From Rhodovibrionaceae bacterium GXU_MW_A322 (lineage in GTDB: Bacteria > Pseudomonadota > Alphaproteobacteria > Kiloniellales > DSM-21159), in NCBI GenBank assembly GCA_052078155.1, contig JBQJBP010000006.1, positions 34,581 through 98,580 of the forward strand: a stretch of 64,000 bases of DNA, given 5' to 3'. The position numbers and the translations under genes are program-made. This document shows, piece by piece, positions 5,591 through 31,775 of the stretch (the first letter of the stretch is position 1; each line of letters begins with the position of its first letter). Below the pieces are notes generated by a model that did no database searches, was not told the DNA's origin, and saw only the letters and a program-made list of their open reading frames with translations.

Positions 5591-5646
5591 ATTCACGCTT
5601 AGAGGGGTGTCACCAAGTGAGGCCACTTAAAGCGATTTGACTCTAG
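5591..5646 (+). repeat. partial copy (module C) of modular MITE-like intergenic element
   Basis: ttcacgcttagaggggtgtcaccaagtgaggccacttaaagcgatttgactctag matches the 3' module of the copies at 6473 and 11672; its terminal CTCTAG overlaps the stop codon of the minus-strand hydratase gene. Confidence 0.7.
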
Positions 5647-6425
5647 AGACCTTTAAAGAGGGCGGGCCGCTTTTCCAGGAAAGCAGCCACGCCCTCTTTT
5701 GCATCGTGGCGGTGGCGCAGGTCACCGTTCATTTCCAGTTCGGCCCGAAACTGCGTCTCAAAGTCGTCCCCTTCCAGGCGATCCAGCAGGGCCCGGGTCT
5801 GAACCAGCGCATGGGTGGGGCCTTTGGCCAGCTGAGCGGCCAGTTCCCGGGCGCGGGGCAGCAGGGCATCATCTTCCAGAACTTCGCTGACCACGCCCAG
5901 ATCCAGGGCCTGTCCGGCAGAGAGGGCGTCGTTGGTCATCATCATTTTCAGGGCGTTGCTCCGGCCGATGGCTTTGGGCAGCAGATAGCTGGACCCCAGA
6001 TCCGGGGCCAGCCCGATGCGGCTGAAAACCTGAATGAACTTGGCGGAGGAAGCGGCCAGCAGAATGTCGCCTGTCAGGGCCAGGGAGAAGCCGCCGCCGG
6101 CGGCTGTGCCATTCACCGCAACGATCACCGGAACCTGACAGCGGCGGAAGGCCTGAAAGACCGGGAAGTAGGCCCGCATCAGTTCCTCTGCCAGGTCCTT
6201 TTCCGGCGGCACCCGGTCCCGTAGATCCTGTCCGGAACAAAAACCCCGCCCTGCGCCTGTCAGGATGAGGGCCCGCAGCTCCGGATCCTGTTCAGTCTGG
6301 CGCAAGGCATCCAGAGCTTCTGCCATCATGGCAAAGGTCAGCGCATTGAGAGCTTCCGGACGGTTGAGTGTAAGGGTTGCAACCGCCCCCTCCCGGGTAA
6401 ACTGAATGTACTGATAGTCCTGCAT
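5643..6425 (-). CDS. enoyl-CoA hydratase/isomerase (crotonase family)
   Basis: 260 aa; ALNAL...ILTGAGRGFCSGQDL...VAVNGTAAGGGFSLAL crotonase fold motifs. Confidence 0.85.
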   Translation of the reverse strand: MQDYQYIQFTREGAVATLTLNRPEALNALTFAMMAEALDALRQTEQDPELRALILTGAGRGFCSGQDLRDRVPPEKDLAEELMRAYFPVFQAFRRCQVPVIVAVNGTAAGGGFSLALTGDILLAASSAKFIQVFSRIGLAPDLGSSYLLPKAIGRSNALKMMMTNDALSAGQALDLGVVSEVLEDDALLPRARELAAQLAKGPTHALVQTRALLDRLEGDDFETQFRAELEMNGDLRHRHDAKEGVAAFLEKRPALFKGL

Positions 6426-6472
6426 GCTCAGTTCCCTTTGCGTCCAGACCTTTGGCTGGTTCGGGCCGTGTC

Positions 6473-6612
6473 TTAGAGCATGATCGGTTCAGTCAGAAGC
6501 GCTTTGCGCTAGTAACTAAACCGTTGATCATCCTCTAACGCGTTGAAAAGAGGCAATTTCACGCTTCAAGTGTTGTCACCTAGTGAGTCCACTTAAAGCG
6601 ATTTGACTCTAG
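6473..6612 (+). repeat. full-length modular MITE-like intergenic element (modules A-B-C)
   Basis: cttagagcatgatcgg...agaagcgctttgcgct...aaaccg...cctctaacgcgttgaaaagagg...cacctagtgagtccacttaaagcgatttgactctag; its terminus supplies the TAG stop of the CoA-transferase gene ending at 6609. Confidence 0.85.
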
Positions 6613-7883
6613 CCCTGATGTTGTCTGCTAGCCTTCTTTTCCAGCAGGCTGGCGATTTCCGCTTCAGAGTATCCGGCTTCAGCCAGCACTTCCGTCGAAT
6701 GCGCCCCCAGATGGGGAGGCAGGGTGCGAATGGTGGAAGGGGTCTTGGAAAAGCGCACGGGCGGTTCGGGCATGCGCAGAGTCCCTTCGGTGGGGTGCTC
6801 TTTGAAATGCCAGAAGCCGCTGGCTTCCAGTTGCTCGTCATTCAGCAGATCTTCTTTGGTGTTGACCCGCTGCACGGGAATGTTGGCGGCATCCAGATCC
6901 CGCTGCCATTCGGCAGTGGTCCGGGTCGCGACAATATCGGCCAGCAGACCGTAGATCTCCTGGGAGTTTGCAACCCGTGTGGCCAGGCTTTCGAAGCGCG
7001 GATCGCTGCACAGCTCTTCCCGCCCGGCCAGTTTCAGAAACTGCTGCCAGTTGTCGTCCGTATAGGGCAGAACCGCCAGGTAGCCGTCCTTGGTGGCGTA
7101 GGGCTTGCGCATGGTGTTCAGCAGGCGCTCGTAGCCCATCTGCGCAATGGGGGGCTCAAAGCAGGCACCGTAGAGGTGTTCCACCATGACAAAGTCCACG
7201 AGAGACTCAAACATGGGCACTTCAATGGCCTGACCACCGCCGCCGCGCTGGCGATGGAACAGAGCTGCCAGGACGGAAGAGACCACGTTAAAGGAGGTGG
7301 TCTTGTCAGCCATGATAGTGGGGACATAGCGGGGCTGGTCGGAGGTGATGGTCTGCAGATCTGCCAATCCTGAGGCGGCCTGAATGATGTCATCATAGGC
7401 TGGTTTGTTGGCCATGGGGCCGTCCCCGCGGAAACCGTAGGCCGCCACAAAGATCAGCTCGGGATAGGCGCTGGTGAACTTTTCTGCCTCCAGTCCCAGT
7501 TTCTTGGCCACAGCCGGGCGCATGTTGTGCACAAAGACATCGGCCGTCCCGACAATCTTGAACAGAGCCTCCCGGCCTTCCTCCTTGGTCAGATCCAGCA
7601 CCACGGAGCGCTTGTTGCGATTGGTGGCCATGAAAAGAGAGCCCATGGCCGGGTTCTTGCGGGGCCCGGAGTGCCGGGTGGTGTCGCCCACCGGGGTTTC
7701 AATCTTGATCACATCGGCGCCCATGTCGCCCAGCATCTGCGTGGCCCAGGGGCCAAGGATCACGGTGGTCAATTCTACAATGCGGATGCCGTCTAAAGTC
7801 CCGGTCATGTCTGCTAATCCAAAATCAAAAGATAGGGGTCTGTTGTCTGGGGTAGGGGCGGGATCAGCCGCCTGCGCTTTCAA
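6609..7883 (-). CDS. CoA-transferase family III (CaiB/BaiF-like)
   Basis: 424 aa; IRIVELTTVILGPWATQMLGDMGADVIKIE N-terminal signature of family III CoA-transferases. Confidence 0.85.
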   Translation of the reverse strand: MKAQAADPAPTPDNRPLSFDFGLADMTGTLDGIRIVELTTVILGPWATQMLGDMGADVIKIETPVGDTTRHSGPRKNPAMGSLFMATNRNKRSVVLDLTKEEGREALFKIVGTADVFVHNMRPAVAKKLGLEAEKFTSAYPELIFVAAYGFRGDGPMANKPAYDDIIQAASGLADLQTITSDQPRYVPTIMADKTTSFNVVSSVLAALFHRQRGGGGQAIEVPMFESLVDFVMVEHLYGACFEPPIAQMGYERLLNTMRKPYATKDGYLAVLPYTDDNWQQFLKLAGREELCSDPRFESLATRVANSQEIYGLLADIVATRTTAEWQRDLDAANIPVQRVNTKEDLLNDEQLEASGFWHFKEHPTEGTLRMPEPPVRFSKTPSTIRTLPPHLGAHSTEVLAEAGYSEAEIASLLEKKASRQHQG

Positions 7884-8763: not shown

Positions 8764-8806
8764 AGATCTAACTTCTCATTCGTGACGTTTTCAGAGAGCG
8801 TGGAGG

Positions 8807-10027: not shown

Positions 10028-10039
10028 ATCGGTTACCTG

Positions 10040-11610: not shown

Positions 11611-11671
11611 ATCAATTCCCGTTTGGTTTTACGTGTCCCTAAGGACAGGTTCTTCAAAGTCTTGTCGGGTC

Positions 11672-11803
11672 TGGCGCATGATCGGTTTGGTCAGAAAGCG
11701 CTCGGAACCAAACCAACATAAGTCCTCTAATTTCTTGAAAAGAGACCTATCCCTGCTCCAGGGACCGTCACCAGGTGAGGCCACCTGAAGCCTGTGGCTC
11801 TAG
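11672..11803 (+). repeat. diverged full-length copy of modular MITE-like intergenic element
   Basis: gcatgatcggtttggtcagaaagcgctcgg...cctctaatttcttgaaaagagac...caccaggtgaggccacctgaagcctgtggctctag; its terminus supplies the TAG stop of the ACAD gene ending at 11800. Confidence 0.75.
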
Positions 11804-16423: not shown

Positions 16424-16562
16424 TAGAGTCAAATCGGTTTAAGTGGAATCACTACGTGATAGCACTTAAAGCGTGAATTTGCCTCTTTTCAACATCTTAG
16501 AGGATGATTCACGGTTTAGTTCCAAGCGCAAAGCGCTTCTACCTAAACCGATCATGCTCTAG
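16424..16562 (-). repeat. full-length modular MITE-like element, inverted orientation (C-B-A)
   Basis: tagagtcaaatcggtttaagtggaatcactacgtgatagcacttaaagcgtgaat...cctcttttcaacatcttagagg...agcgcaaagcgcttct...ccgatcatgctctag is the reverse complement of the 6473-6612 copy. Confidence 0.85.
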
Positions 16563-16622: not shown

Positions 16623-17930
16623 TCAGCAATCGAGCGTGTGGTCGCGTTCCCACTGGCTCAGGTGATTCTTGAAGCTCACCCATTCCTGATTCTTCAGCTT
16701 GACGTAGCTGTCGATCAGTTCGTCGCCCATGCCCTCGCGCAAGACAGAACTGCCGTTGGTCAGGCGGATGGCATCCAGCAGGTTGAGCGGCAGCTGCTTG
16801 GCGTCTTTGACCGTATGTCCATCGGTGTACATGTCGATGTCCAGACGGGTGCCGGGGTCGCGTTTGTTTGCCACACCATCCAGGCCAGCGGCCAGAATGC
16901 CGGCCTGACAGAGATAGGGGTTGGTGGCACCGTCCATCAGGCGCATTTCAAAACGGCCTTCGCCGGGAATGCGGATCATGTGGGTCCGGTTGTTGCCGCC
17001 GTACGTTACGGTGTTGGGCGCCCAGGTCGCCCCGGATGTGGTCCGGGGGGCGTTGATGCGCTTGTAGCTGTTTACCGTCGGATTGAAGATGGAGCAGAGT
17101 TCTTCAGCGGAGTGAATTACCCCACCCAGGAAGTTGTAGGCCATGTCGCTGAGGCCCAGTTCCCCCTGGCTGTCTTCAAAGAGGTTCACATCCCCGGCTT
17201 CGTTCCAGATGGACACGTGAGAGTGACAGCCGTTGCCCGTCAGGTTGGCGAAGGGCTTGGGCATGAATGTGGCCCGCAGGCCCTGTTCTTCGGCCAGGAT
17301 TTTGACCATGAACTTGAAGAAGACATGGCGATCGGCGGTTTTCATGCAGTCGTCAAATTCCCAGTTCATTTCGAACTGGCCGTTGGCGTCTTCATGATCG
17401 TTCTGATAGGGCAGCCAGCCCAGATCCAGCATGTTGTCACACAGGCTGCTGATCAGATCGTAGCGCCGCATCAGGGCACTCTGGTCGTAGCAGGGCTTGG
17501 CCTGGGTATCCAGCTGATCTGCAACGCTGTCGCCAGCAGGATCAATCAGGAAAAATTCGCACTCCACACCGGTTTTCATGCGCATGCCTTGTTCGGCGGC
17601 CTTGGCGATCTGACGCTTCAGGGCCACGCGCGGCGACGCTTCGATTTCTTTGCCGTTCAGCCAAAGATCAGAGGCCAGCCAGCCAACCTCCGGTTTCCAG
17701 GGCAGCTGGATCAGGGTGGAAGGATCCGGAACGGCCATCATGTCACCATCGGCGGGGGACATGTCCAGATGAGCGGCAAAACCGGCGAAGCCAGCCCCGT
17801 CCACCTGCATGCCGGCAATGGCCTGGGCGGGCACCAGCTTGGCCCGCAGCACACCAAAGAGATCAACGAAACTGATGAGGAAGTATTTGATTCCTCTGGC
17901 TTCTGCCTCTTGGGCTAAATCGATAGACAT
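16623..17930 (-). CDS. glnT: glutamine synthetase family protein, GlnT/type III-like (gamma-glutamyl-amine synthetase type)
   Basis: 435 aa (same length class as rhizobial GSIII/GlnT); GS catalytic-domain motifs (KPCYDQSALMRRYD, NGCHSHVSIW, MIRIPGEGRFEMR). Confidence 0.8.
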   Translation of the reverse strand: MSIDLAQEAEARGIKYFLISFVDLFGVLRAKLVPAQAIAGMQVDGAGFAGFAAHLDMSPADGDMMAVPDPSTLIQLPWKPEVGWLASDLWLNGKEIEASPRVALKRQIAKAAEQGMRMKTGVECEFFLIDPAGDSVADQLDTQAKPCYDQSALMRRYDLISSLCDNMLDLGWLPYQNDHEDANGQFEMNWEFDDCMKTADRHVFFKFMVKILAEEQGLRATFMPKPFANLTGNGCHSHVSIWNEAGDVNLFEDSQGELGLSDMAYNFLGGVIHSAEELCSIFNPTVNSYKRINAPRTTSGATWAPNTVTYGGNNRTHMIRIPGEGRFEMRLMDGATNPYLCQAGILAAGLDGVANKRDPGTRLDIDMYTDGHTVKDAKQLPLNLLDAIRLTNGSSVLREGMGDELIDSYVKLKNQEWVSFKNHLSQWERDHTLDC

Positions 17931-18061
17931 GAATTTCCCCTGTATCGTTTACTTGTTTTGCTTGGCCCCACAGTAGCAGAGCTTTCGATCAATACACACT
18001 GGCGTTGAAGGTCTGTCCCTTTTTTCTTTTTCAGACCTCAACGCCAGTTTTGTTGCCCGAT

Positions 18062-19384
18062 TTACAGGCCGCCCTGGCCTGGTACCCAATCGGTGCCGGC
18101 CAGCGGCACCTGAGCCATGGCTGCGGCTTCGATGGTCATGGCCGCCAGATCGCTGGTATCCAGGTTGAGCACGTCATTCTTACCGCAGGCCCGCGCCAGA
18201 GTCTGGAGTTCCAGAACCATGGTCTGCAGATAGTTCTTCATGTAGCGGGCACCCTTTTCAGGGGGCAGGCGTTTTTCCAGATCCGGATCCTGGGTGGCCA
18301 CACCCACAGGGCATTTGCCCGTGTGGCAGTGGTGGCAGAAGCCAGGCTCTGTGCCCATGGCCTGATAGTCTTCCACATAGACAGGCTTGTTGCAGCCCAG
18401 CGCCACCATGGCGGCGGAGCCGATGGAAACAGCGTCTGCGCCCATGGCCAGAGCCTTGGCCACATCGGCGCCGGAGCGGATGCCGCCGGAGACGATCAGC
18501 TGCACTTTGCGGTGCATGCCCAGTTGGGTCAGGGAATCTACAGCCTGGCGAATGGCGGGCAGGGTGGGGATGCCCACATGTTCGATAAAGACATCCTGGG
18601 TGGCGGCGGTCCCGCCTTGCATGCCGTCCAGCACAATCACGTCTGCACCGGCTTTCACAGCCAGGGCCACGTCGTACTTGGTGCGGGTAGCCCCGACCTT
18701 CACGTAGATGGGCACCTGCCAGTCGGTGATTTCCCGCAGTTCCCGGATTTTGATTTCCAGATCGTCCGGACCGGTCCAGTCCGGGTGGCGGCAGGCGCTG
18801 CGCTGGTCAATGCCTTCCGGCAGGGTCCGCATGCCGGCCACACGCTCGGTGATCTTCTGGCCCAGCAACATGCCGCCGCCGCCGGGTTTGGCGCCCTGGC
18901 CCACCACCACTTCAATGGCGTCGGCTTTGCGCAGGTGGTCCGGGTTCATGCCGTAGCGAGAGGGCAGGATCTGGTAGACCAGTGTTTTCGAAGAGCCACG
19001 CTCTTCATCGGTCATGCCACCGTCACCGGTGGTGGTGGTCGTGCCCATCATGCTGGCGGCCCGGCCGAGTGAATCCTTGGCATTGGCGCCCAGTGCGCCA
19101 AAGCTCATCCCGGCGATGGTGATGGGAATGTCCAGCTGGATGGGCTTTTTGGCGAAGCGCGTGCCCAAGGTGACCTTGGTGTTGCAGGCTTCGCGGTACC
19201 CTTCCAGCGGGTAGCGGGAGATGGAGGCCCCCAGCAGCACCAGATCATCAAAAGTAGGGACTTTGCGTTTCGCGCCGAAGCCGCGAATGTCGTAAACACC
19301 TTGGTTTGCAGCCCGATGAATTTCTGCCAGAACGTCCTGAGGAAAAGTTGCAGATTCGCGCAAGGAACGGGGGTCAACAGCCAT
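18062..19384 (-). CDS. glxD: glutamate-synthase-like FMN/Fe-S domain protein (GlxD/MgsC type)
   Basis: 440 aa; GltB FMN-binding-domain homologue (GGTAATQ, VSGGIRSGADVAKALAMGADAV); third gene of the glxBCD arrangement. Confidence 0.8.
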   Translation of the reverse strand: MAVDPRSLRESATFPQDVLAEIHRAANQGVYDIRGFGAKRKVPTFDDLVLLGASISRYPLEGYREACNTKVTLGTRFAKKPIQLDIPITIAGMSFGALGANAKDSLGRAASMMGTTTTTGDGGMTDEERGSSKTLVYQILPSRYGMNPDHLRKADAIEVVVGQGAKPGGGGMLLGQKITERVAGMRTLPEGIDQRSACRHPDWTGPDDLEIKIRELREITDWQVPIYVKVGATRTKYDVALAVKAGADVIVLDGMQGGTAATQDVFIEHVGIPTLPAIRQAVDSLTQLGMHRKVQLIVSGGIRSGADVAKALAMGADAVSIGSAAMVALGCNKPVYVEDYQAMGTEPGFCHHCHTGKCPVGVATQDPDLEKRLPPEKGARYMKNYLQTMVLELQTLARACGKNDVLNLDTSDLAAMTIEAAAMAQVPLAGTDWVPGQGGL

Positions 19385-19419
19385 GATTTTTATTCCTGAA
19401 TTTTCCTTGATTGCGGGCG

Positions 19420-20127
19420 TTACATCGCATCAACGTTGTCGATATTGAAATTGTAGAGGTTCCGGGCTGAACCATAGCGTTTGAAGTCTTTGGCGTCGGC
19501 CTCGACGCCTGCTTCCGCCAGCAGCCGGGTGATCGTTTCCAGATGCTCGGGGCGCATTTCCTTTTCCACGCAGTCAGCGCCCAGGCTGTCGACCTTACCT
19601 TTGACAAAAAGGTTGGCCTCATAAACGGAATCGCCCAGGTCGTGACCGGCATCTCCGCAGATCACCACATTGCCCTTTTGGCCCAGGAAGCCACACATGT
19701 GGCCAACAGAGCCTTTGACGACGATATCGACGCCTTTCATGGAAATGCCACAGCGGGCTGCGGCGTCGCCTTCGATCACCAGCAGGCCGCCGTGGGCAGT
19801 GGCCCCGGCAAATTGGGAGGCATTGCCGGTGACGCGCACAGAGCCGGACATCATGTTTTCAGCCACACCAGGCCCAGCGTGGCCCTTGATGACAATGTTG
19901 GCTTCCTTGTTCATTCCGCCGCAGTAGAAGCCCGCATGCCCTTCGACCGTTACGTTGATCGGCTCGGTCAAACCGACGGCAATGGAATGGGTGCCCAGAG
20001 GGTTCACCACATGCCAGTCGGTTTCAGCAGCTGATTCAGGGCCTTCCAGCCCCCGGATGGTCCGGTTAACTGTGGTCAGGTCGCTCGTTTTCAGGTCGAG
20101 TTCTGTTGACATTAGTTGTGGCTCCAA
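19420..20127 (-). CDS. glxC: GXGXG-motif protein, glutamate-synthase C-terminal-domain-like (GlxC/MgsB type)
   Basis: 235 aa; repeated beta-helix GXGXG motifs (VEGHAGFYCGGMNKEANIVIKGHAGPGVAENMMSGSVRVTGNA). Confidence 0.8.
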   Translation of the reverse strand: MEPQLMSTELDLKTSDLTTVNRTIRGLEGPESAAETDWHVVNPLGTHSIAVGLTEPINVTVEGHAGFYCGGMNKEANIVIKGHAGPGVAENMMSGSVRVTGNASQFAGATAHGGLLVIEGDAAARCGISMKGVDIVVKGSVGHMCGFLGQKGNVVICGDAGHDLGDSVYEANLFVKGKVDSLGADCVEKEMRPEHLETITRLLAEAGVEADAKDFKRYGSARNLYNFNIDNVDAM

Positions 20128-21014
20128 CTGTAGATCTTTGCTGGTTCCGGTTCCCAGATCTTTGCGTTCTCCGCACCTGGCAGAGTGGCGATGGCCCGGA
20201 ATTCCGTTGCCATGGCAACCCAGTCATCGGTCTCGGCCATGACGGCGTGTTTGCAGGAGATGGGATCGCGCACCACAGCAAACCCGTCGCGGGTTCCCAC
20301 AGCAAAGGTGAAGAAGCCGTCCAGGTGTTTCAGCGCGGACTCAAGCGCTTCATCCAGGCTGTCGCCCTGTTCCATCCGCCAGGTCAGATAGCCAGCGGCC
20401 ACTTCACTGTCGTTTTCGGTCCGGATTTCAATACCTTCGCGGCGCAGCTGGTCGCGCAGCCGGAAGTGGTTGGACAAAGATCCGTTGTGCACAAGGCAGA
20501 GATCTTCACCGGTGGAAAAGGGGTGGGACCCGTCGGTGGTCACGGCGGATTCCGTCGCCATACGGGTATGTCCCAGGGCGTGGGTGCCGTTCAGACCAAC
20601 CAGGCCAAAGCGGTCAATGACGTCTTTGGGGCGACCCGTTTCCTTGAAGATTTCAATGGCATCGCCGCCGCTGACAATCCGCAGGTCAGGATGGTTGTCT
20701 TTCAACCAGTTCCGGACGGTTTTGTAGTCATGGTCGCTGCGCAGAACTGCATGGGTTGCGCGTTCTTCTACCGTCATCTCACCGTTCAGACGCAGGGTGC
20801 CTTCAGCAGCCAGGGCTGCCCAGTCGTAGTCACCTGATTCTTCGGGTGTCAGGGTCAGTTTGGTGCCGCCCTGAGGTGCCGGGTTCCGATAAAAAGCGAC
20901 GCCGGCGGAATCGGGTCCGCGCTCGGTCATTTCTTCCAGCATCGGGGAAAGAAGTTTCCCCAGATTTGCCTCAACTTCAGGAGTCTTGGCAAAAAGTCCA
21001 ACAATTCCACACAT
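20112..21014 (-). CDS. glxB: class II glutamine amidotransferase-like protein (GlxB/MgsA type)
   Basis: 300 aa beginning MCGIVGL (N-terminal nucleophile Cys of class II GATases); overlaps glxC by 16 nt. Confidence 0.8.
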   Translation of the reverse strand: MCGIVGLFAKTPEVEANLGKLLSPMLEEMTERGPDSAGVAFYRNPAPQGGTKLTLTPEESGDYDWAALAAEGTLRLNGEMTVEERATHAVLRSDHDYKTVRNWLKDNHPDLRIVSGGDAIEIFKETGRPKDVIDRFGLVGLNGTHALGHTRMATESAVTTDGSHPFSTGEDLCLVHNGSLSNHFRLRDQLRREGIEIRTENDSEVAAGYLTWRMEQGDSLDEALESALKHLDGFFTFAVGTRDGFAVVRDPISCKHAVMAETDDWVAMATEFRAIATLPGAENAKIWEPEPAKIYSWSHN

Positions 21015-21148
21015 GGCTTGAAATTCCGCATGATTAACTTGCGCAGAGTATATCGATAGCCAAGTGAATATATCAACCCCTGTTAAAAGAAATTTCCTCT
21101 CAGGAAACTTTCTGATTTTTCAGAGGCAAAGGGTAATGCAGGGGAACT

Positions 21149-21817
21149 TCAGTCGTCTGAAATCCGGGTGTAGGAAATGATTGAAAGGTAGGAAATGGGC
21201 AGTTTGTTGAGCTTTTCAGGGCCGTGCAGAGCGTCGGCGTCAAACAAAAGCGAATCGCCGGGGTTGAGCACGTAGAGTTCATCGCCGTGGCGATAGGTCA
21301 CTTCACCCTCCAGCATGTAGATAAATTCCATGCCGCCGTGCTGGAAAACAGGGAATACGTCTGATTCCTCATTCAGGGAGATGAGGTAGGGCTCCACGGT
21401 AATGGCGTTGCCGACAGCATGTCCCAGCAGGTTGTACTGATGTCCGGCGCGGGTGCCGCGGCGCTCAATCTTCAGGCCCTGACCGGCGGGCACATAGCTG
21501 ACGTCCCGATGTTCTTCGTACTTCTGAAACAGGGCGGTAACCGGCACGTTCAGGGCTTCGGAAACAGCCTTGAGGGTTGATAATGACGGGGAAGTCGAGC
21601 CGTTTTCAATCTTTGACAGCATCCCGGCAGAGAGACCGGCCTGCTTTGCCATTTCTGAAACGGTCATGTTGAGTTTCTGCCGGAAATGGCGGACCTGCTG
21701 TCCGATGGCGGTTTCCAGAGAATTCTCTGAAACGCCGCCAACATCATGCGGGTTTTGGCTCGGAAGGCCGGTATCGCCTTTTTGGGTTTTGCTGGGCATT
21801 CGCAGAAATTCCGCCAT
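21149..21817 (-). CDS. XRE-family HTH + cupin-domain transcriptional regulator (PuuR-like architecture)
   Basis: HTH_3 motif (IGQQVRHFRQKLNMTVSEMAKQAGLSAGMLSKIENG) followed by a cupin barrel (YLISLNEESD...FQHGGMEFIYMLEGEV); the start may be the MPSKTQ methionine at 21799. Confidence 0.75.
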   Translation of the reverse strand: MAEFLRMPSKTQKGDTGLPSQNPHDVGGVSENSLETAIGQQVRHFRQKLNMTVSEMAKQAGLSAGMLSKIENGSTSPSLSTLKAVSEALNVPVTALFQKYEEHRDVSYVPAGQGLKIERRGTRAGHQYNLLGHAVGNAITVEPYLISLNEESDVFPVFQHGGMEFIYMLEGEVTYRHGDELYVLNPGDSLLFDADALHGPEKLNKLPISYLSIISYTRISDD

Positions 21818-22038
21818 ACATTCATTTTCTTTACTCTATTACCTCCTTGCTCCCGACTTGGCTACACCCGGTCTTGAGCCGTGCAGGGGCAGATTGTCAC
21901 GCACCAAAGGCGGGTAGGTGGAACCGGAAGGATGTGAGGAGGGGGAAGACGTCTGTCACGGGGTCCTTGCCTCCAGCCGGTCTTTACGGCCTGATGGGGA
22001 CAGGGCGTTTTGCCCTGTTGGATTTGGGGAACCCTTAC

Positions 22039-22755
22039 ATGAGCCTGCTGTTTGAAGAGCTGGATTACCGGCCAACGCCCATCGGTGATCTGTCACTGCG
22101 CCGTCGGCGGGACCTCAAGCTGGGAAAAGACGTCATTGAGATCAAGCTGGGGGAGGAGTTTTTGATGTCTTCCCACTTTACAGCTTCCGAGATCGCCCTG
22201 GCGGAACTGGGGCTCAAAGACCTGCTGCCCGGCACACCTCTGGATGTGATCGTTGGTGGACTGGGGCTGGGCTACACGGCACAGGCCGTGCTGGAGCAGG
22301 ATCAAGTTGCCTCTTTGCGGGTGATCGATGCCCTGCAGCCGGTTATCGACTGGCACGAAAGCGGGCTTTTGCCTCTGGGGCCAGGCTTGACCAGCGATCC
22401 CCGGTGCCACTTTCAGCTGGGTGATTTCTTTGCCCTGGCGCAGTCTGAAGAGGGGTTTCAGGCGGCTGAGCCGGGCCGGAAATACCACGCCATCCTGGTG
22501 GACATTGATCATTCGCCGGAGCAATGGCTTGATCCGAACAACGCGCCTTTTTACCAGCCTGAAGGCTTGGCAAAGGTGAAACAGCACCTCCACCCCGGGG
22601 GCGTCTTCGGGCTCTGGTCCAATGATAAACCGGAAGCTGATTTTACTGCCCGGTTAGAGGCGGTTTTTGGGCGTGCTTCTGCTGAGCCGGTGGTGTTCTA
22701 CAACCCCATCCAGGACTGCGATTTCACGCAGACTGTTTATCTGGCCTGGGTCTGA
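22039..22755 (+). CDS. spermidine-synthase-like (polyamine aminopropyltransferase fold) protein
   Basis: LDVIVGGLGLGYTAQAVL...YHAILVDIDHSPE...GGVFGLWSN pattern of spermine/spermidine-synthase-like class I methyltransferase-fold proteins. The start is placed at the MSLLFEEL methionine; the longer upstream ORF lacks coding character. Confidence 0.6.
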   Translation: MSLLFEELDYRPTPIGDLSLRRRRDLKLGKDVIEIKLGEEFLMSSHFTASEIALAELGLKDLLPGTPLDVIVGGLGLGYTAQAVLEQDQVASLRVIDALQPVIDWHESGLLPLGPGLTSDPRCHFQLGDFFALAQSEEGFQAAEPGRKYHAILVDIDHSPEQWLDPNNAPFYQPEGLAKVKQHLHPGGVFGLWSNDKPEADFTARLEAVFGRASAEPVVFYNPIQDCDFTQTVYLAWV

Positions 22756-23009
22756 TCCGGAGGCCCGCGGACACCGCCGGGCCTCCGGGATACTGTCCCG
22801 ATCACAATTTGGTGAAACCCTGCGGGCAGTGCTGGGGTCACCCTGCTGCAGACATCATGAAAACGTCGCTGATCTGGATAACCGCCAAAAATCAGCTGGC
22901 TGATATGATTTGCCATTTCCGGAAGGTTGTGGTCCAAGTCTGCCATCAGCTGCGCGCGTAGTGGACCCATAAGGTCAGGACGCGGCTGATTGTCGGCAAC
23001 GGCCCGGAG

Positions 23010-23075
23010 ACAATTCGGTTTAAGTGGCCTCTCTTCGTGAGAGTGGTCTTACCGTGAAACTTGTTCTGGTGAACG
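23010..23075. repeat. degenerate partial copy of MITE-like element
   Basis: tcggtttaagtggcctctcttcgtgagagtggtcttaccgtgaaac resembles the tcggtttaagtggaatcactacgtgatagcacttaaagcgtgaat module. Confidence 0.35.
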
Positions 23076-23206: not shown

Positions 23207-24880
23207 TTGAAAGTACTTTCTTTGACGACTTTTGAGTCTCTCGGCCTTGCCGAGCCCCTCCTTCGTGCGCTCTCCGCCGAAGGCTACAGCAACCCAACCC
23301 CCATTCAGGCTGACGTGGTGCCGACCATGCTGGCTGGCGAAGATCTGGTGGGCATTGCCCAAACCGGTACAGGCAAAACTGCCGCCTTTACCCTGCCACT
23401 GCTGCACAAAATCGCTCAGCAACAACCCAAACGGCACCCCAAAAGCTGTGGTGCCCTGATCCTGGCGCCGACCCGTGAACTGGCCGCCCAGATCGCTGAA
23501 TCCATCGAAACCTATGGCCGCCACATCCGCCACTCCGTTGCCGTTGTGGTCGGCGGTGTCAAAGCCAACCCACAGATCCGGGCCATGTCCCGTGGGGTCG
23601 ACATCCTGGTGGCAACGCCTGGACGCCTGGAAGATCTGCAGGCCCAGGGGGCCATCTGCCTCGATCACACCGATACGGTCATCCTCGATGAAGCCGATCA
23701 GATGCTGGACCTGGGCTTTCTGCCTGCCATCCGGCGGGTGATGAAGCTGCTGCCGCGCCAGCGTCAGACGGTTTTGCTCTCCGCCACCATGCCCAAACAG
23801 ATCCGGCGCCTGGCCGACGACTTCCTGACCTCCCCGGCTGAAATTGCCGTGGCACCGGCGTCCCGACCCATTGACCGCATCGACCAGACGGTGATGCATC
23901 TGGACCGGCCCGGGAAAAGGGAGAAGCTGGTTGAGCTTCTCCGCCCGAGCGAGGTGGAGCGGGCCATTGTCTTTACCCGCACCAAACGCGGCGCCGACCG
24001 GGTCAGCCGGCAGTTGCAGGCAGCCGATCTGACTTCCGCAGCCATTCATGGCAACAAGAGCCAGGGGCAGCGGGAACGGGCGCTGGCCGCTTTCAAAGAC
24101 GGCAGCGTAAAGATCCTGGTGGCGACTGACATTGCCGCCCGGGGTATTGATGTGGAGGCTGTCTCCCACGTTGTGAACTTCGAGCTGCCCAATGTGCCGG
24201 AAGCCTATGTGCACCGGATCGGGCGCACGGCCCGCGCCGGAACCTCCGGCGTGGCGGTGTCTTTCTGTGATGATACGGAACAGGATCAGCTGAGAGACAT
24301 CGAGAAGCTGATCGGTACAAAGATCCCGGCCATTGGAACGCCCATTCAGGCGGATCCCGATGCGGAGAAGACCAAAGGCAAATCCTCTGGCCGGGGCGGT
24401 CGCGGGGTGCGTGCCGGAAACGGCAAGCAGACCGAAGGTCCGGCCCGCGCTGCCAAGGGCCGCCGTCGCCAGACTCCAGCGCAGGCGGAACGGGCGTCAG
24501 CTCAACGAGCAGAGCGTGACCGGGCCAGAGATGAGGCGCTGAAAAAGAACAAAGGTTCTGGCTCACAGGCGTCTCAGGGCAACAAACAGGCCCAAAGCAC
24601 GTCTCAGAAGACGACCCAGAAAACGCCACAGAAAACGCTGCTGCCTGACACCAAGCCCTCCCGGGATGGTCAGACGGTCAAGACCGCCGCGGGCAGGAAA
24701 AAAGGCAAAGGTAACTTTGCCAACAATGGAACGCGGCCATCAAAGGGCGCTGGGGCTTCCGGCCCGTCTGCTCAAAGCGGCCGGGGCAACCGGCAAGGCC
24801 AGGGGCAGGGGACCGGGCAGGCTCGAGGTCAGAAGAACAAAGGTTACCGCTCAGGCGGTGCCCGGAAGGCCGCAGCTTAG
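23207..24880 (+). CDS. rhlE: ATP-dependent DEAD-box RNA helicase (RhlE-like) with basic, low-complexity C-terminal tail
   Basis: Q-motif (YSNPTPIQ), motif I (AQTGTGKT), DEAD, SAT, HRIGRTAR(A)G; ~150-aa R/G/Q/K-rich tail with QKTTQKTPQKT repeats. TTG start at 23207, with no in-frame ATG upstream of the Q motif. Confidence 0.85.
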   Translation: MKVLSLTTFESLGLAEPLLRALSAEGYSNPTPIQADVVPTMLAGEDLVGIAQTGTGKTAAFTLPLLHKIAQQQPKRHPKSCGALILAPTRELAAQIAESIETYGRHIRHSVAVVVGGVKANPQIRAMSRGVDILVATPGRLEDLQAQGAICLDHTDTVILDEADQMLDLGFLPAIRRVMKLLPRQRQTVLLSATMPKQIRRLADDFLTSPAEIAVAPASRPIDRIDQTVMHLDRPGKREKLVELLRPSEVERAIVFTRTKRGADRVSRQLQAADLTSAAIHGNKSQGQRERALAAFKDGSVKILVATDIAARGIDVEAVSHVVNFELPNVPEAYVHRIGRTARAGTSGVAVSFCDDTEQDQLRDIEKLIGTKIPAIGTPIQADPDAEKTKGKSSGRGGRGVRAGNGKQTEGPARAAKGRRRQTPAQAERASAQRAERDRARDEALKKNKGSGSQASQGNKQAQSTSQKTTQKTPQKTLLPDTKPSRDGQTVKTAAGRKKGKGNFANNGTRPSKGAGASGPSAQSGRGNRQGQGQGTGQARGQKNKGYRSGGARKAAA

Positions 24881-25016
24881 AGTCAAATCGGTTTAAGTGG
24901 AATCGCTACGTGATAACGCTTAGAGCGTGAATCACCCTCTAGCAGGTTTAGAAGAGGCTTATTGACGTCTTATTTGAAATCACCTCGTGATTCCAAACAC
25001 GACGATAAGACTCTAG
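24877..25016. repeat. composite MITE-like element (inverted module C + forward modules B and C')
   Basis: agagtcaaatcggtttaagtggaatcgctacgtgataacgcttagagcgtgaat | caccctctagcaggtttagaagaggcttatt | gacgtcttatttgaaatcacctcgtgattccaaacacgacgataagactctag; its 5' terminus contains the helicase TAG stop. Confidence 0.8.
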
Positions 25017-25483: not shown

Positions 25484-25502
25484 GCGCTGCTTGTACCAGT
25501 TA

Positions 25503-26376: not shown

Positions 26377-26527
26377 TGAGAACTGAGGTCGATCTGTAAG
26401 GTCAGGGCCGTTAAACACTTGCGTCTGAGATCTGCCCCTTACAGGCATGCGCCCCTGCAAAACCTGCGCGTTTGAGGGGAGGGCGCTCAGAATTGAGGCT
26501 TTGGGAGGCTGTGGGATTTCTATATAG

Positions 26528-26552
26528 TTGACTTTGTCAATTAAATGATTGA
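26528..26552. promoter_or_regulatory. TTGAC-TTT-GTCAA perfect palindrome plus third TTGAC half-site upstream of MarR-GNAT gene (putative autoregulatory operator)
   Basis: ttgactttgtcaattaaatgattgac seen directly 13-37 nt upstream of the start codon. Confidence 0.45.
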
Positions 26553-26564
26553 CGTTATCCTTTA

Positions 26565-27524: not shown

Positions 27525-27825
27525 TGTCACACCGCTTTCTGTTGCCCCGCTGTGTGAGCGTTTTCAACGCGTGACGCACTTGGCTGAGAATAAGAGGGGG
27601 ATACAGGGGGATGCAGGGGCAGGTTTGACGCGGACCACGATGCGCTCCGGCAGAGGGATCACGCTCTCGCCGCGGGCGCAGTGCCCCTCGTTTTCTCGGA
27701 GATCTTTTTGCCTGGTGGGGCGCCTTTAGGTGCCAAATCTGCAACCGACGCGGTGCAAGGTTCACCGTCCAACAGAGCCGGGAGGTTGTGCCCGACTGGT
27801 TCCTGATTAAAAAGCGGCTTTTTCG

Positions 27826-28842: not shown

Positions 28843-28883
28843 CTTCTGTTCTGGCTGATAAATCAGGGAGATAGGCAGGGCAG

Positions 28884-29999
28884 ATGGGAAAACTGAAGCA
28901 GGAAGTATCGACAATTGTCGGCTATTTGCTTTTTGGGGGTGTTGCTGTCTATGGCGACGCGCTCATACCCACGGCTTTGCCGGGTTATCTCGCTGCCCTG
29001 GTTTTTGTTCTGCTGTTCACAGTCATGCTCTGGCTGGCTTTTTCCGTGGTCCGTCATGCGGAGTGCCTGGCGGAGCTTCTCGGGGAGCCTTACGGAACGC
29101 TGATCCTGACCCTTTCAGTGATCGGTATTGAGGTGGCACTGATTTCCTCTGTCATGATCACCGGTGCAGACCGTCCCACCCTGGCGCGGGACACCATGTT
29201 TTCTGTGGTCATGATCGTTCTGAACGGTCTGGTGGGGCTCAGTCTTGTAACCGGCGGGCTGAAGCATCGCTTTCAGGACTACAATCTGAAAGGGGCCAAC
29301 GCCTATCTTGCTGTGTTGATCCCTTTGGCGGTCCTGACCCTGGTGCTGCCACGGTTCTCCCATTCGGCCCCGGGAGGGGAGATGTCTCTTTTGCAGGCAG
29401 GCTTCTTCATCGTGATGTCCCTGCTGCTTTACGGCGTTTTTCTGGCGATCCAGACCGTCACCCATACCGACATGTTCAAGTTTCCAACCCAGATCAACGC
29501 GGAGGGACAGGTCGAAGATGGCGGTCACCATAGCCTGGTTGTGCATTCCATCCCCTTCCACGCCTTCGCGCTGATCGCAGCCATGCTGCCCATCGTTTTG
29601 CTGTCCAAAAAGATGGCCATTTATGTGGAATTCGGCATCGAGTTCCTCGGTGCCCCCGTCGCGCTGGGCGGCTTCCTGATTGCCGCCCTTGTGCTGACGC
29701 CGGAAGGTCTGGGCGCCATCAAGGCAGCCCGCAGCAATCAGTTGCAGCGGGCGGTTAACATCTGCCTGGGCTCAGCTTTGGCGACCATTGGTCTGACGGT
29801 GCCTGCCGTGCTGATCATCGGCATGATCATGGGCAGCCCGGTGGAGCTTGGGCTTATTCCGGTTGATATCATTGTCCTGCTGCTGACCCTGGTGGTCTCT
29901 CTGGTCACCTTTGTTTCTGCCCGCACCAATTTTCTGCTGGGGGCAGTTCACCTTTCTCTCTTTGCCGCCTACGTGATGATGATCTTCGACGGAAAGTAG
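28884..29999 (+). CDS. chaA: Ca2+/H+ antiporter, CaCA family (ChaA-like)
   Basis: 371 aa with 11 TM helices and duplicated alpha-repeat regions (GNAYLAVLIP..., GLGAIKAARSNQLQRAVNICLGSAL) typical of ChaA-type antiporters. Confidence 0.7.
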   Translation: MGKLKQEVSTIVGYLLFGGVAVYGDALIPTALPGYLAALVFVLLFTVMLWLAFSVVRHAECLAELLGEPYGTLILTLSVIGIEVALISSVMITGADRPTLARDTMFSVVMIVLNGLVGLSLVTGGLKHRFQDYNLKGANAYLAVLIPLAVLTLVLPRFSHSAPGGEMSLLQAGFFIVMSLLLYGVFLAIQTVTHTDMFKFPTQINAEGQVEDGGHHSLVVHSIPFHAFALIAAMLPIVLLSKKMAIYVEFGIEFLGAPVALGGFLIAALVLTPEGLGAIKAARSNQLQRAVNICLGSALATIGLTVPAVLIIGMIMGSPVELGLIPVDIIVLLLTLVVSLVTFVSARTNFLLGAVHLSLFAAYVMMIFDGK

Positions 30000-30033
30000 G
30001 CGACGTTAGATCGCTTGATGCAGTTAGAGAGGT

Positions 30034-30663
30034 TTGCAGGTGCTGGACGGTGTTAAAGTTGTTGCCTGGGACTATGACGGGGTCTTGAACCGGAATATCC
30101 AGTCTGGCCGGTTCCTCTGGGCCGATAATTTTGAGCGGGACCTGGGTCAGTCCCTGTCCTTCTTCGAAAACTACATGTTCTGCCAGAACCTCGCAGATAT
30201 CCTGACCGGTAAGGAGGATCTACGGGATCGGGTGATGGCCTGGGGGCAGGAAGTTGGTTTTGCGCCCGGGCCAGATCAGCTGCTGGACTACTGGTTCTCC
30301 CGGGACAGCTTTCCTGATCCAGAGATCCCGGCAGTAATGAAGAAATTGTCAGACCGTGGCTTTGTTCAGGTGATCGCCACGAACAATGAGACGCGCCGGG
30401 TCCGTTACATTGAAGAGAATCTGGGGTGGGGACGAAAGGTGGACCGGGTCTTTGCCTCCGGCAGGCTGGGGATCGCAAAGCCAGACCTTCAGTTCTATGA
30501 CGCGGTGACAGCGGCTCTGGGTGTTGACCCTCATGAGATTCTGTTCTTCGACGATGGGGCAGAGAATGTTGGCTCAGCCCGCTCCTATGGCTGGTCAGCC
30601 CATCACTTTACCGAAGAAACACGCCCGACCCTGCTGGCTGACCTTGCCGCTTGTCTGAGATAG
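30034..30663 (+). CDS. HAD-superfamily hydrolase
   Basis: VVAWDYDGVL (motif I DxDG), ...ATNNE..., FFDDGAENV (motif IV); 209 aa. Confidence 0.7.
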   Translation: MQVLDGVKVVAWDYDGVLNRNIQSGRFLWADNFERDLGQSLSFFENYMFCQNLADILTGKEDLRDRVMAWGQEVGFAPGPDQLLDYWFSRDSFPDPEIPAVMKKLSDRGFVQVIATNNETRRVRYIEENLGWGRKVDRVFASGRLGIAKPDLQFYDAVTAALGVDPHEILFFDDGAENVGSARSYGWSAHHFTEETRPTLLADLAACLR

Positions 30664-30665
30664 AT

Positions 30666-30807
30666 CTCAGAGCATGATCGTTTTAGTCAGAAGCACTTTG
30701 CGCTTGTGCCTAAACCGTGAATCACCCTCTAACAGATTGAAAAGAGGCTTATTCACGTCTTGTTTGAAAACACCTCGTGATTCCAAATGAGACGATAAGG
30801 CTCTAAG
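30666..30807 (+). repeat. full-length modular MITE-like element (modules A-B-C')
   Basis: ctcagagcatgatcgttttagtcagaagcactttgcgcttgtgcctaaaccgtgaatcaccctctaacagattgaaaagaggcttattcacgtcttgtttgaaaacacctcgtgattccaaatgagacgataaggctctaag; its terminus supplies the stop of the gene ending at 30803. Confidence 0.85.
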
Positions 30808-31582
30808 GCAGAAATCCTTCACCGATTTGCGCTGCATCAATGGCGGTTTGCAGGTTGTTGATCTGCTCTGTCAGGGTGCGCAGACGGTTTTGCTCCCGTG
30901 GCAGTTCCACGCGACAGTCGCGTTTGTATTCCAGTTGTGCATGTTCGCGAACCTTGACCGCGCACTGTCTGAAATCGACAGAAAAGAGGCCTCTGCATTC
31001 GTCATAAACGTTGTGGGTGTCGTCATATCTGCTGGTACAGCCCTGGCAGGTGCCACATTGCTGTTGCCGGGTCAGCACCCACTTTCCAAGCATTCTCTGT
31101 TCTGCCGTCAGTTCCTCCAGCAGAGTGACCTGCTCTTCCAGCATCTGGGCCTTGGTTTCAGCCTTTTCAGCTGCCAGGGCCTCTTTTTCTTCTGCCTGCT
31201 GTTCAGCATCTCTTTGAACCAGCTGCTCTTCCCGGGACCAGACCACCAGATCAATGGCCTCTTCATAGTGCTCCCCGGTTCGACCCGTCTTGACCAGGTA
31301 ATCCAGCAGGACCTGCTCTGCTTCTGCAAATTCACCGCTCTCAAACAGCAGCTTGCCTTCGTAGAAAGTGATTGAAAAATCAACCGGCAGGTTGAGCGCA
31401 CGCATCTGCTTCAGCGCTTCGATGGCTTCTTCGTGCTGGTCTCTTTCCAGAAAGACTTCGACCTGGCGGGACAAGAGATCAAACTTCACTTCTGGCGGCA
31501 GCCCCTGAGCAGATGCCTGCTGAAAGGCTGGGCTGAAGATCAATGCCGCTAAGATCAGGCAGCCGGAAAGAAACTTGATCAT
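30803..31582 (-). CDS. secreted hypothetical protein with helical/coiled-coil region and Cys-rich C-terminal segment
   Basis: Signal peptide MIKFLSGCLILAALIFSPAFQQASA; TPR-like or coiled-coil middle (EAIEALKQMRALNL..., EEKEALAAEKAETKAQMLEEQVTLLEEL); C-terminal CGTCQGCTSRYDDTHNVYDECRG...C...C. Bracketed by two MITE copies. Confidence 0.6.
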   Translation of the reverse strand: MIKFLSGCLILAALIFSPAFQQASAQGLPPEVKFDLLSRQVEVFLERDQHEEAIEALKQMRALNLPVDFSITFYEGKLLFESGEFAEAEQVLLDYLVKTGRTGEHYEEAIDLVVWSREEQLVQRDAEQQAEEKEALAAEKAETKAQMLEEQVTLLEELTAEQRMLGKWVLTRQQQCGTCQGCTSRYDDTHNVYDECRGLFSVDFRQCAVKVREHAQLEYKRDCRVELPREQNRLRTLTEQINNLQTAIDAAQIGEGFLP

Positions 31583-31649
31583 CAAAGTGGGTCCTAACGC
31601 GGAAAAACAAAAATCACAGCTACCCGGGCGTTCATTCAAAGGGACATTC

Positions 31650-31775
31650 ATTAGAGCATGATCGCTCGCCTAGGAAGCCCTTTATGCTCTAACGTAAACC
31701 GTAAATCATCCTCTAACCTGTTGAAAAGAGGATAATTCATGCTTCGTGTTCGCTCACCTGGCGGTGTCCCTTAGA
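31650..31775 (+). repeat. truncated MITE-like element (modules A-B and partial C)
   Basis: ttagagcatgatcgctcgcc...aaaccgtaaatcatcctctaacctgttgaaaagaggataattcatgcttcgtgttcgctcacctgg. Confidence 0.75.

Follow-up and report, generated by a model that had tools for sequence, protein, structure and literature searches.

Several families of short bacterial repeats and insertion sequences (ISs) provide a context for the repeats found in A322. In the CIR (CcrM-associated intergenic) repeats, known from Alphaproteobacteria such as Caulobacter and Brucella (Chen & Shapiro 2003), a linker connects two separate stem-loop arms within ~110 bp, and the repeats have TA termini and GANTC sites; RUP elements have been tied to IS630-Spn1 by the similarity of their terminal inverted repeats (TIRs) and by their TA targets; ERICs exert orientation-dependent effects on mRNA; and bacterial MITEs with TA termini are on record (PMC2229807). 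CIRs are possibly equivalent to the Bru-RS1/2 repeats of Brucella. IS711, whose insertion at YTAR duplicates the TA, has hot spots in the Bru-RS repeats (PMC2266754, PMC3163539). The IS5/IS427-group ISs of Alphaproteobacteria produce 2-bp duplications, and 2-bp direct repeats are described for the IS427 group in Paracoccus (PMC3281130). The IS630/Tc1 elements likewise duplicate TA (PMC2170065). REPs and REPINs are organized around hairpins, and compensatory changes are common in them (PMC3116915).

In the window (the whole 64-kb stretch of DNA that was analysed) from the marine alphaproteobacterium A322 (Rhodovibrionaceae), repeat search, MAFFT alignment and nhmmer (E 1e-42 to 0.02) agreed on eight homologous repeat loci, six of them full copies and two of them single arms, all at 5.5–31.9 kb (Table 1). 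Neither repeat search nor nhmmer found further copies in the 64-kb window, to which the count of n = 8 refers. The elements are 131–165 bp in length, typically ~138 bp, and occur in both orientations. In the MAFFT alignment, the boundaries of the eight dispersed copies are sharp and base-identical and their flanks are mutually unrelated. No Rfam family matched the element, and the 64-kb window was found to contain no transposase gene, including no Y1 transposase/RAYT (Y1/HUH) gene.

Table 1. Repeat loci in the A322 window, with their structure, gene setting and ends.
Feature	Position	Strand	Structure and scores	Gene setting	Ends and rebuilt empty site
Single C-type arm, 63-nt monomer	5583..5645	+	nhmmer match to HMM positions 76–138, exactly the right arm; covariance model R1 73.3 bits	Between convergent aldolase-like gene (stop 5568–5570) and ECH gene	Outer end CTC-TA is the ECH TAG stop (5643–5645, minus strand)
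Full element	6474..6611	+	A arm 6474–6536, linker 6537–6548, C arm 6549–6611	Within CoA-transferase to ECH operon (minus strand)	Right TA plus terminal C is the CoA-transferase TAG (6609–6611); rebuilt site TTAG; earlier stop TAA
Full element	11672..11802	+	6-nt deletion in A arm	Within ACAD to thiolase operon	Left end degenerate, TG-GCG for TA-GAG; right end is the ACAD TAG (11800–11802); rebuilt site CTAG
Full element, inverted	16424..16561	-	C arm 16424–16486, A arm 16499–16561	Directly 3′ of intrinsic terminator of type III glutamine-synthetase-like gene	Inserted at sole TA of 104-nt spacer; no stop codon involved; rebuilt site ATAG
Degenerate single C-type arm	23005..23067	+	nhmmer E = 0.02; R1 51.6 bits, E = 3e-10; weak fold, z = -1.3	Upstream of DEAD-box helicase gene	Flanking TA gone (CG)
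C arm + C′ arm heterodimer	24878..25015	.	C 24878–24940, C′ 24953–25015; five GANTC sites	Between convergent helicase and MarR genes	Left TA plus G is the helicase TAG (24878–24880); rebuilt site TTAG; earlier stop TAG
A arm + C′ arm heterodimer	30668..30805	+	A 30668–30730, C′ 30743–30805	Between convergent HAD hydrolase (stop 30661–30663) and TPR genes	Right end is the TPR TAG (30803–30805); left TA mutated to CA; rebuilt site TTAA; earlier stop TAA, two stops then 4 nt apart
Element, A-like arm + diverged C-like right arm	31652..31816	+	A-like arm 31652–31714; 27-nt insertion in right arm	Between NRPS stop (31921–31923) and TPR gene start (31582)	Right flank TG, not TA

In each full element a 12-nt linker separates two 63-nt hairpin arms, the second of them inverted; the layout is TA-GAG...CTC-TA, and in four copies the core measures exactly 134 nt. 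The terminal inverted repeats, GAGyMWrATCG... and its inverse ...CGATyWKrCTC, belong to arms that are inverted homologues throughout. Among the six full copies, TA was counted at 10 of 12 ends, with the single-base variants CA or TG at the other two, and the left end of the copy at 11672 is a third variant that also reads TG. As sequence, the element ends are GAGCATGATCG / GAGTCAAATCG. The linker is constant at 12 nt in six dimers, in which the arm types are paired as A+C, C+C′ and A+C′. A preliminary description of this DNA had pictured MITE/BIME-like elements of modular build that are dispersed in both orientations, end in inverted repeats and form mosaics, and alignment and anatomy bore it out. 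That description had also divided the element into three hairpin modules named A, B and C/C′. The hairpins are real: the RNA folds of the elements reach z = -3.7 to -7.5, compensatory changes are found at 15 of 23 pairs of the arm across A, C and C′, and 84% of cells are paired in the arm fold compared to 28–44% in slid controls, with 0 of 500 shuffles equally good. The division has to be redrawn, as module B is the 12-nt linker together with the inner feet (CCTCT/AGAGG) of both arms, and A, C and C′ represent a single 63-nt hairpin in three homologous versions.

Compared to CIRs, the A322 element is found in the same host class, is 138 bp rather than ~110 bp in length, and has two long inverted repeats that form two stem-loop arms with a linker. 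It also shares with them, in a comparison made from their published description, the terminal TA, the embedded GANTC, the strictly intergenic location and the stop codons in all six frames, which make it non-coding. However, CIRs are described as highly conserved across species, whereas the A322 family was seen only in A322 and in one partial Aquabacter copy; ~115 kb from six further Alphaproteobacteria (Sneathiella, Labrenzia, Oceanibacterium, Hypericibacter and two MAGs) yielded no match to the arm covariance model. The GANTC sites of the A322 element, in addition, are located in stems and terminally rather than being exposed in a loop. As in the GTAG/CGTC REP, REPIN and BIME families, there are hairpin singletons and inverted homo- or heterodimers with conserved spacers, located mostly downstream of genes, but the A322 unit is 63 nt rather than 20–40 nt, has no GTAG/CGTC tag, and has a TA at either flank, as would be expected of a 2-bp target duplication. 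The ERIC/IRU, Correia/NEMIS and RUP elements resemble it in being non-coding sequences of 100–170 bp that have terminal inverted repeats, duplicate TA, form stable RNA hairpins and are co-transcribed with their neighbours. They differ from it in that pairing of their 5′ and 3′ ends yields one long stem instead of autonomous, interchangeable half-hairpins; they are A+T-rich, while the A322 element has 40–48% GC in a 59% GC genome; and there is no sequence similarity. The likeness to IS711, the IS427 group and IS630 is in the target signature alone (TA in YTAR, 2-bp repeats and TA duplication), and no matching IS end was seen in the 64-kb window. Collectively, these comparisons suggested that the family is a previously undescribed, lineage-restricted MITE, REP-dimer or CIR-like repeat.

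Every insertion is at a TA, in spacers that hold 1, 3, 2, 2, 2, 1 and 8 TA sites. Removing the element with one copy of the duplicated TA gave the empty sites TTAG, ATAG, TTAG, TTAA, CTAG and TTAA for the six full copies, and in-frame TAA, TAG, TAA and TAG stops were regained. Five of the six rebuilt sites are YTAR, so that the insertion apparently prefers YTAR, a preference that is partly circular since a stop codon forces R. Because TA is palindromic, a 2-bp duplication is formally indistinguishable from IS200/IS605-like insertion, in which an element with a terminal TA of its own is placed next to a target TA.

Operons of two other genera that lack the element were compared with those of A322. 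The syntenic operon of Sneathiella sp. CAU 1612 encodes ACAD (388 aa), thiolase (390 aa) and ECH (260 aa), which match A322 in length and in C-terminal residues; the spacers of this operon measure 45 and 42 nt, compared to 189 and 183 nt in A322, equivalent to a spacer plus one element. The same operon in Labrenzia has a 9-nt ACAD–thiolase spacer and no arm-like hairpin. In the orthologous element-free operons the genes end at the same terminal residues with the stops TGA/TAA/TAA. Sneathiella and Labrenzia are distant relatives (about 72–77% protein identity) whose empty sites are not alignable at the nucleotide level; the nearest relatives have a protein identity of about 76%.

The preliminary description had assigned the TAG stops of five flanking genes to element termini, and all five coordinates (ECH, CoA-transferase, ACAD, DEAD helicase and TPR) proved exact. 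Each of these stops is made up of the flanking TA and the initial G of the element and, because both element ends begin with G, TA+G reads TAG from either side. Insertion into, or selection for, such stops had been proposed. Insertion into the TA of a stop is the best reading, as in-frame stops are regained and the orthologues end alike, but special targeting or selection was not borne out: the five spacers tested hold 1, 3, 2, 2 and 2 TAs, of which the stop codon holds one or both, and the joint chance is ~1/6; with a YTAR preference and coding sites excluded, the finding of 4 of 6 insertions at stops has P = 0.075. TA is scarce in the GC-rich spacers and many of the TAs are in stop codons; therefore, as far as sequence can tell, the overlap is a by-product of target choice and purifying selection. 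The phenomenon itself is already known for similar bacterial repeats. De Gregorio et al. reportedly found in 2005 that many of the ERICs in Yersinia overlap stop codons or directly adjoin them. Termini that donate TAG have also been described for REPs (PMC3733652).

These observations are probably best explained by a non-autonomous DNA element, now or formerly mobile, that duplicates TA upon insertion. The unit would be the inverted dimer of two 63-nt hairpin modules with the 12-nt linker, GAG...CTC ends and duplicated TA flanks, and a trans-acting transposase, presumably encoded elsewhere in the genome, would insert it at TA with the apparent preference for YTAR. This signature is that of alphaproteobacterial IS5/IS427-type elements (e.g., IS711) and of IS630/Tc1-type transposases. 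The ends of the IS427/IS1031 group start with GAG or GA/G (ISfinder family table), as do those of the A322 element. Where the element enters a TAA or TAG stop at its TA, the protein would be unchanged and the stop would become TAG, whereas insertions into coding sequence, ribosome-binding or promoter regions would be purged by selection. Elements within operons would be co-transcribed, and their stable hairpins are probably passive or mildly regulatory mRNA structures that may affect stability or processing. The notion that the hairpins act as attenuators found no backing in the elements, in which no promoter or canonical terminator consensus was found; a role as mRNA stabilisers is plausible as one of mRNA structure but is only hinted at by the strand asymmetry of the folds.

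A possible, if rather unlikely, alternative is a REP/REPIN-like system in which recognition would be of the 63-nt hairpin, while the inverted dimer would be what replicates. A tyrosine (HUH) transposase, either RAYT/TIRYT or IS200/IS605 in type, would mobilise the element in single-stranded form, and TAG(AG) would be a cleavage tag of the element, not a target duplication. Each arm folds alone and its fold is kept by compensatory changes across the arm types, as is known for REPINs (PMC3116915); the three kinds of heterodimer and the two exact single arms are also consistent with it, and dimers, heterodimers, singletons, families with long self-complementary TIRs and tyrosine transposases, and TAG-donating termini are all known for REPs (PMC3733652). 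However, the unit is longer than the REP range of 20–40 nt, a conserved GTAG or CGTC tag is missing, and the base preceding TAG varies across six sites (T, A, T, T, C and T). An element owning both TAs would moreover strip genes of a stop at an ortholog-conserved end, so that only a variant inserting right after the target TA fits, and there is no Y1 transposase in the 64-kb window. Against insertion by a DDE-type enzyme it may be observed that the ends are long hairpins with compensatory changes and that single arms exist, which fits REP/RAYT or IS200/IS605 ends better than plain DDE inverted repeats. It is improbable that the A322 repeats form a distinct class of alphaproteobacterial mobile repeats that transpose as two paired 63-nt hairpin modules, interchangeable and under structural constraint, for which stops (YTA-R) are a true "safe-harbour" target, and whose G-initial ends evolved so that a stop is regenerated whichever side is read; selection at the RNA level would then act on the hairpin that has the stop in its foot, and the repeats might carry CcrM sites as well. 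If so, translation termination would be coupled to mRNA fate within operons.

It is quite improbable that the elements are retained chiefly as host functions, i.e., as hairpin pairs kept at gene 3′ ends and in operons for mRNA stability, processing or decay, with a stop in the hairpin foot through which terminating ribosomes modulate folding (compare ERIC in Yersinia), or as a cluster of CcrM (GANTC) sites like the CIRs of Caulobacter and Brucella. For the three copies that are co-transcribed, the fold of the transcribed strand is 7–13 kcal/mol better than that of its complement, compared to ≤2–3 kcal/mol for copies after a terminator or between convergent genes, and all five stop overlaps use a C or C′ arm, never an A arm, giving the operon RNA the order stop, C, linker, A and next gene. 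GANTC occurs 14 times in 974 nt, a 9-fold enrichment, at the fixed arm positions 3, 23 and 52, and both the orientation-dependent action of ERICs on mRNA and the CIR architecture offer precedents (PMC2229807). However, the samples are tiny (3 vs 3 for strand asymmetry; Fisher P ~0.06 for arm bias), GANTC is only moderately conserved (position 3 in 5/8 and position 23 in 5/8 of the C/C′ arms) and located in stems or at the terminus, not in loops, neither a terminator nor a promoter consensus is present, and in Sneathiella and Labrenzia the orthologous operons function with no such element. Function would also leave the dispersal unexplained and thus complements a mobility mechanism rather than replacing it. 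That there is no element at all is hardly conceivable: all copies are within 26 kb of one window, but they occur in both orientations and with nhmmer E values down to 1e-42, and a related arm plus linker occurs in another species. Because the copies share sharply defined boundaries and differ in their flanks, local segmental duplication and chance palindromes are ruled out. The relative in question, a partial copy recovered with the arm covariance model, is from Aquabacter sediminis, which belongs to a different order.

Repeat searching, MAFFT alignment and an nhmmer profile confirmed that the repeat copies reported in the preliminary description are real, with six of approximately full length and two partial (see table), and none of these methods found further copies in the 64-kb window. 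The termini are exactly TA-GAG...CTC-TA. The core is exactly 134 nt in four copies, 127 nt in one whose left end is degenerate and which has a small deletion, and 161 nt in one with a 27-nt insertion. All six reading frames are closed within the elements, with stops every ~20 amino acids. The insertion (GATGCGGTTGCATCGAGAAAACCGAAC) starts with its own small hairpin, GATGC-GGTT-GCATC.

Coordinates of the repeat copies and of other features discussed in the text
Feature	Position	Strand	Remark
Single arm	5583-5645		stop of enoyl-CoA hydratase (ECH) gene, 5643-5645
Full copy	starts 6474		CoA-transferase stop, 6609-6611
Full copy	starts 11672		acyl-CoA dehydrogenase (ACAD) stop, 11800-11802
Full copy	starts 16424		at the sole TA of a 104-nt spacer
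Single arm, degenerate	23005-23067
Full copy	starts 24878		DEAD helicase stop, 24878-24880
Full copy	starts 30668		TPR gene stop, 30803-30805
Full copy, diverged	31652-31816		27-nt insertion in right arm, 31780-31806
GANTC sites, examples	16426, 16446, 16506, 24880, 24900, 24929, 24989, 25009
Glutamine-synthetase-like cluster	16623-21817	minus
302-aa ORF	21847-22755	plus	upstream of degenerate single arm
NRPS/PKS cluster	31.9 kb onward
NRPS gene	31921-44301		4,126 aa
Direct-repeat families in NRPS gene	34400-42400		spacing ~3.2-3.3 kb
Short repeat in the 8-kb Aquabacter sediminis locus L001	632-651, 3587-3606		GAGAAAGTGGSCAYCGGWCC; one copy borders directly on the related element, at its outer end

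Cutting each copy at the central CCTCT/AGAGG feet yielded 14 arms, one of them from Aquabacter sediminis. Twelve of these are exactly 63 nt long; the arms of the 11672 copy measure 57 and 62 nt, and alignment gaps occur only in those two. By sequence the arms fall into types A (GAGCATGATCGG...), C (GAGTCAAATCGG...) and C' (GAGTCTTATCGT...), and all of them adopt the same three-helix hairpin, with 83.6% of cells paired compared to 28-44% when the partner is slid. Changes on both sides were found in 15 of the 23 pairs, none of 500 shuffles reached the observed values, and each arm type folded alone as DNA gives the same topology. The element is an arm of 63 nt, a linker of 12 nt (consensus AACnnnTTGAAA) and an inverted arm of 63 nt. 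The separate module "B" proposed previously dissolves into this linker plus the inner feet of both arms, and the two apparent fragments are exactly one arm each. Arms are combined as A+C in three clear copies and in the diverged 31652 copy, as C+C' and as A+C'.

The reported coincidence of element termini with stop codons is exact in all five cases: reading inward, each TAG is formed by the flanking TA together with the element's initial G. In the full copies, the outermost variable bases are symmetric about the TA, so that TA alone can be a duplication. A 4-bp (YTAR) duplication was ruled out, as the right C and left G are constant parts of the element and the outermost bases vary. Deletion of the element and one TA reconstructs the sites TTAG, ATAG, TTAG, TTAA, CTAG and TTAA; in the four full copies overlapping stops, it leaves an in-frame stop at the same codon (TAA, TAG, TAA or TAG).

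For the type III glutamine-synthetase-like protein and the CaiB/BaiF CoA-transferase of the window, the next best NCBI matches after the organism's own entries (100% identical) are only ~76-77% identical, leaving no close relative for comparison. The fatty-acid/CoA operon also occurs in an element-free form in Sneathiella sp. CAU 1612, where ACAD (388 aa), thiolase (390 aa) and ECH (260 aa) agree exactly with their A322 counterparts in length and in C-terminal residues (…LPKSY*, …FKG[L/E]*). The stop codons of an element-free relative, a comparison suggested in the preliminary description, are TGA, TAA and TAA for these three Sneathiella genes. The Sneathiella spacers are 45 and 42 nt, whereas those of A322 measure 189 and 183 nt and are thus longer by one element; residual A322 spacers without the element are 47-60 nt, resembling the 42-45 nt of Sneathiella. 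Labrenzia has the same operon with an ACAD-thiolase spacer of 9 nt, and the arm covariance model found no match in the Sneathiella and Labrenzia operon loci. Collectively, the conserved protein ends and the element-free operons indicate that the elements were inserted exactly on native stop codons, leaving the proteins unchanged. Nine of 30 curated genes in 1-32000 end in TAG; five of those TAGs are element-made, at least two of them formerly TAA.

Because both termini start with G, TA plus G reads as TAG on entering the element from either side, and a copy that lands on the TA of a stop codon TAA or TAG is therefore silent. An element-free reconstruction of 1-32 kb contains 536 TA sites, of which stop codons hold 19, other intergenic positions 97 and coding sequence 420, and 69 YTAR sites (11, 25 and 33, respectively). 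The stop coincidence has P ~2e-5 against all TA sites, P = 0.008 against non-coding plus stop TA sites, and P = 0.075 given a YTAR preference. YTAR is found at five of six sites, an inference that is partly circular because the stop codon forces the R. The five spacers with a stop-overlapping copy hold 1, 3, 2, 2 and 2 TA sites, of which 1, 1, 1, 2 and 2 are in stop codons. The most telling test is the joint probability of stop overlap given these sites, which is ~1/6. Thus, of the earlier proposal of insertion into, or selection for, stop-codon TA sites, the location on native stops stands but special targeting or selection is not supported. With few TA sites in a GC-rich genome (~59% GC) with tight operons, the coincidence is what a TA-requiring element must produce; its TA target, its ends beginning with G and the scarcity of TA account for the overlap. 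Selection reinforces the pattern, as an element placed at the very 3' end of the upstream gene spares the downstream ribosome-binding region.

No transposase genes were found in the window. The TA/YTAR target signature matches known alphaproteobacterial DDE elements, which makes these the candidates for mobilization, and movement by a DDE transposase with TA duplication is probable. The ends of IS427/IS1031-group elements start with GAG or GA/G, and the A322 element likewise starts with GAG. Paracoccus insertion sequences of the IS5/IS427 group make 2-bp repeats (PMC3281130), TA is duplicated by IS630/Tc1 elements (PMC2170065), and IS630-Spn1 is the presumed mobilizer of RUP (PMC2229807). Speaking against a simple DDE-mobilized MITE, each end is an autonomous hairpin conserved by covariation which, with the singletons and heterodimers, is in the style of REP/REPIN or IS200/IS605-type ends (PMC3733652, PMC3116915). 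The unit nevertheless measures 63 nt, beyond the 20-40 nt of REPs, the GTAG or CGTC tag is absent, and an element owning both TAs would strip the flanking genes of a conserved stop. Mobilization by a tyrosine transposase is unlikely.

The suggestion that the hairpins act as attenuators did not hold, as the elements contain no intrinsic-terminator or sigma-70 consensus; with no consistent consensus site in the elements, terminator, attenuator and promoter roles were rejected. Three copies are necessarily co-transcribed (CoA-transferase to ECH, ACAD to thiolase, and NRPS to TPR). There the fold of the transcribed strand is 7-13 kcal/mol more stable than that of the complementary strand, compared to 2-3 kcal/mol or less in the other three, and the RNA order in the operon copies is stop, C, linker, A. 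In all five overlaps it is a C or C' arm that meets the stop (Fisher P ~0.06, with too few copies to interpret). These observations hint at RNA-level selection, in numbers far too small to conclude anything, and recall ERIC, whose effects depend on orientation (PMC2229807). Orientation relative to replication is 4:1, also in too few copies for interpretation. The elements contain 14 GANTC (CcrM) sites in 974 nt (14.4 per kb), a 9-fold enrichment over the 1.6 per kb of the remaining window. They recur at positions 3, 23 and 52 of the arm, the middle N being variable, and bring to mind the CIR repeats of Caulobacter and Brucella, which are associated with CcrM.

CIR repeats, compared by description, are also the closest in architecture, with two stem-loop arms and a linker in ~110 bp (PMC2229807), and share TA termini, GANTC sites and closed frames with the A322 element (PMC2229807). 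The sole relative found is a partial copy in Aquabacter sediminis, comprising an A-type arm, the linker and the first part of another arm (nhmmer E = 1e-7); its arm scores 61.5 bits against the arm covariance model, which itself includes that arm. A scan of 185,579 species genomes with ATCAYCCTCTAANNNNTTGAAAAGAGG matched only Aquabacter sediminis, where the short repeat GAGAAAGTGGSCAYCGGWCC may be another interspersed family of that genome. No match was obtained by blastn in PLSDB plasmids or in a first scan of JGI metagenomes; a looser second scan gave 15 matches, all by chance, with flanks lacking homology. The covariance model found no relatives in ~115 kb from six other Alphaproteobacteria, five further loci included. 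Rfam returned no family at the gathering threshold or at E <= 1, no tRNA genes were found, and a literature search with GAGCATGATC gave unrelated primers only.

The A322 family is real, neatly structured and previously undescribed, yet ordinary in kind. It opens no new mechanism: repeats whose termini donate a TAG, repeats with two arms in Alphaproteobacteria and transposases that target TA/YTAR have each been documented. It illustrates unusually cleanly a general rule: for a TA-duplicating element with G-initial ends, a TAA or TAG stop codon is a neutral landing place, and in GC-rich genomes with tight operons such stops are among the few TA sites on offer. Such elements raise TAG usage; if the family is abundant genome-wide, the rise should be measurable and accompanied by a TAGAG context bias at gene ends. 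They also add ~136 bp to intra-operon spacers, can mislead gene-end and terminator prediction, and may mark native chromosome as opposed to recently acquired DNA.

All eight copies lie within 5.5-31.9 kb and none in the NRPS/PKS half (32000-64000); the last coincides with the edge of the cluster, where it separates the TPR gene from the NRPS stop. Intergenic DNA in the second half is only ~1.5-2 kb, and ~4-5 copies would be expected at first-half density. The cluster could have been acquired later than the element's active burst, or the absence could be fortuitous. The first 32 kb are of ordinary metabolic content, with a fatty-acid/CoA operon (ACAD, thiolase, OB-fold protein, CoA-transferase, HpcH lyase, CoA-transferase and ECH), a nitrogen-assimilation cluster (type III glutamine synthetase, Glu_synthase, GXGXG and GATase proteins), and genes for a DEAD-box helicase, MarR regulators and transporters. 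The 302-aa ORF has typical coding GC3 (0.68) and no Pfam match. The direct repeats inside the NRPS gene correspond to its recurring condensation, adenylation and thiolation modules and are not mobile. The type III glutamine-synthetase-like gene is accompanied by Glu_synthase-domain, GXGXG and GATase_6 genes and an HTH-cupin regulator. The same arrangement is conserved in Hypericibacter (compare loci L020 and L021), where sarcosine-oxidase-like genes adjoin, and the cluster looks like a gamma-glutamylmethylamide/N-methylglutamate pathway for methylamine use rather than ordinary glutamine/glutamate synthesis.
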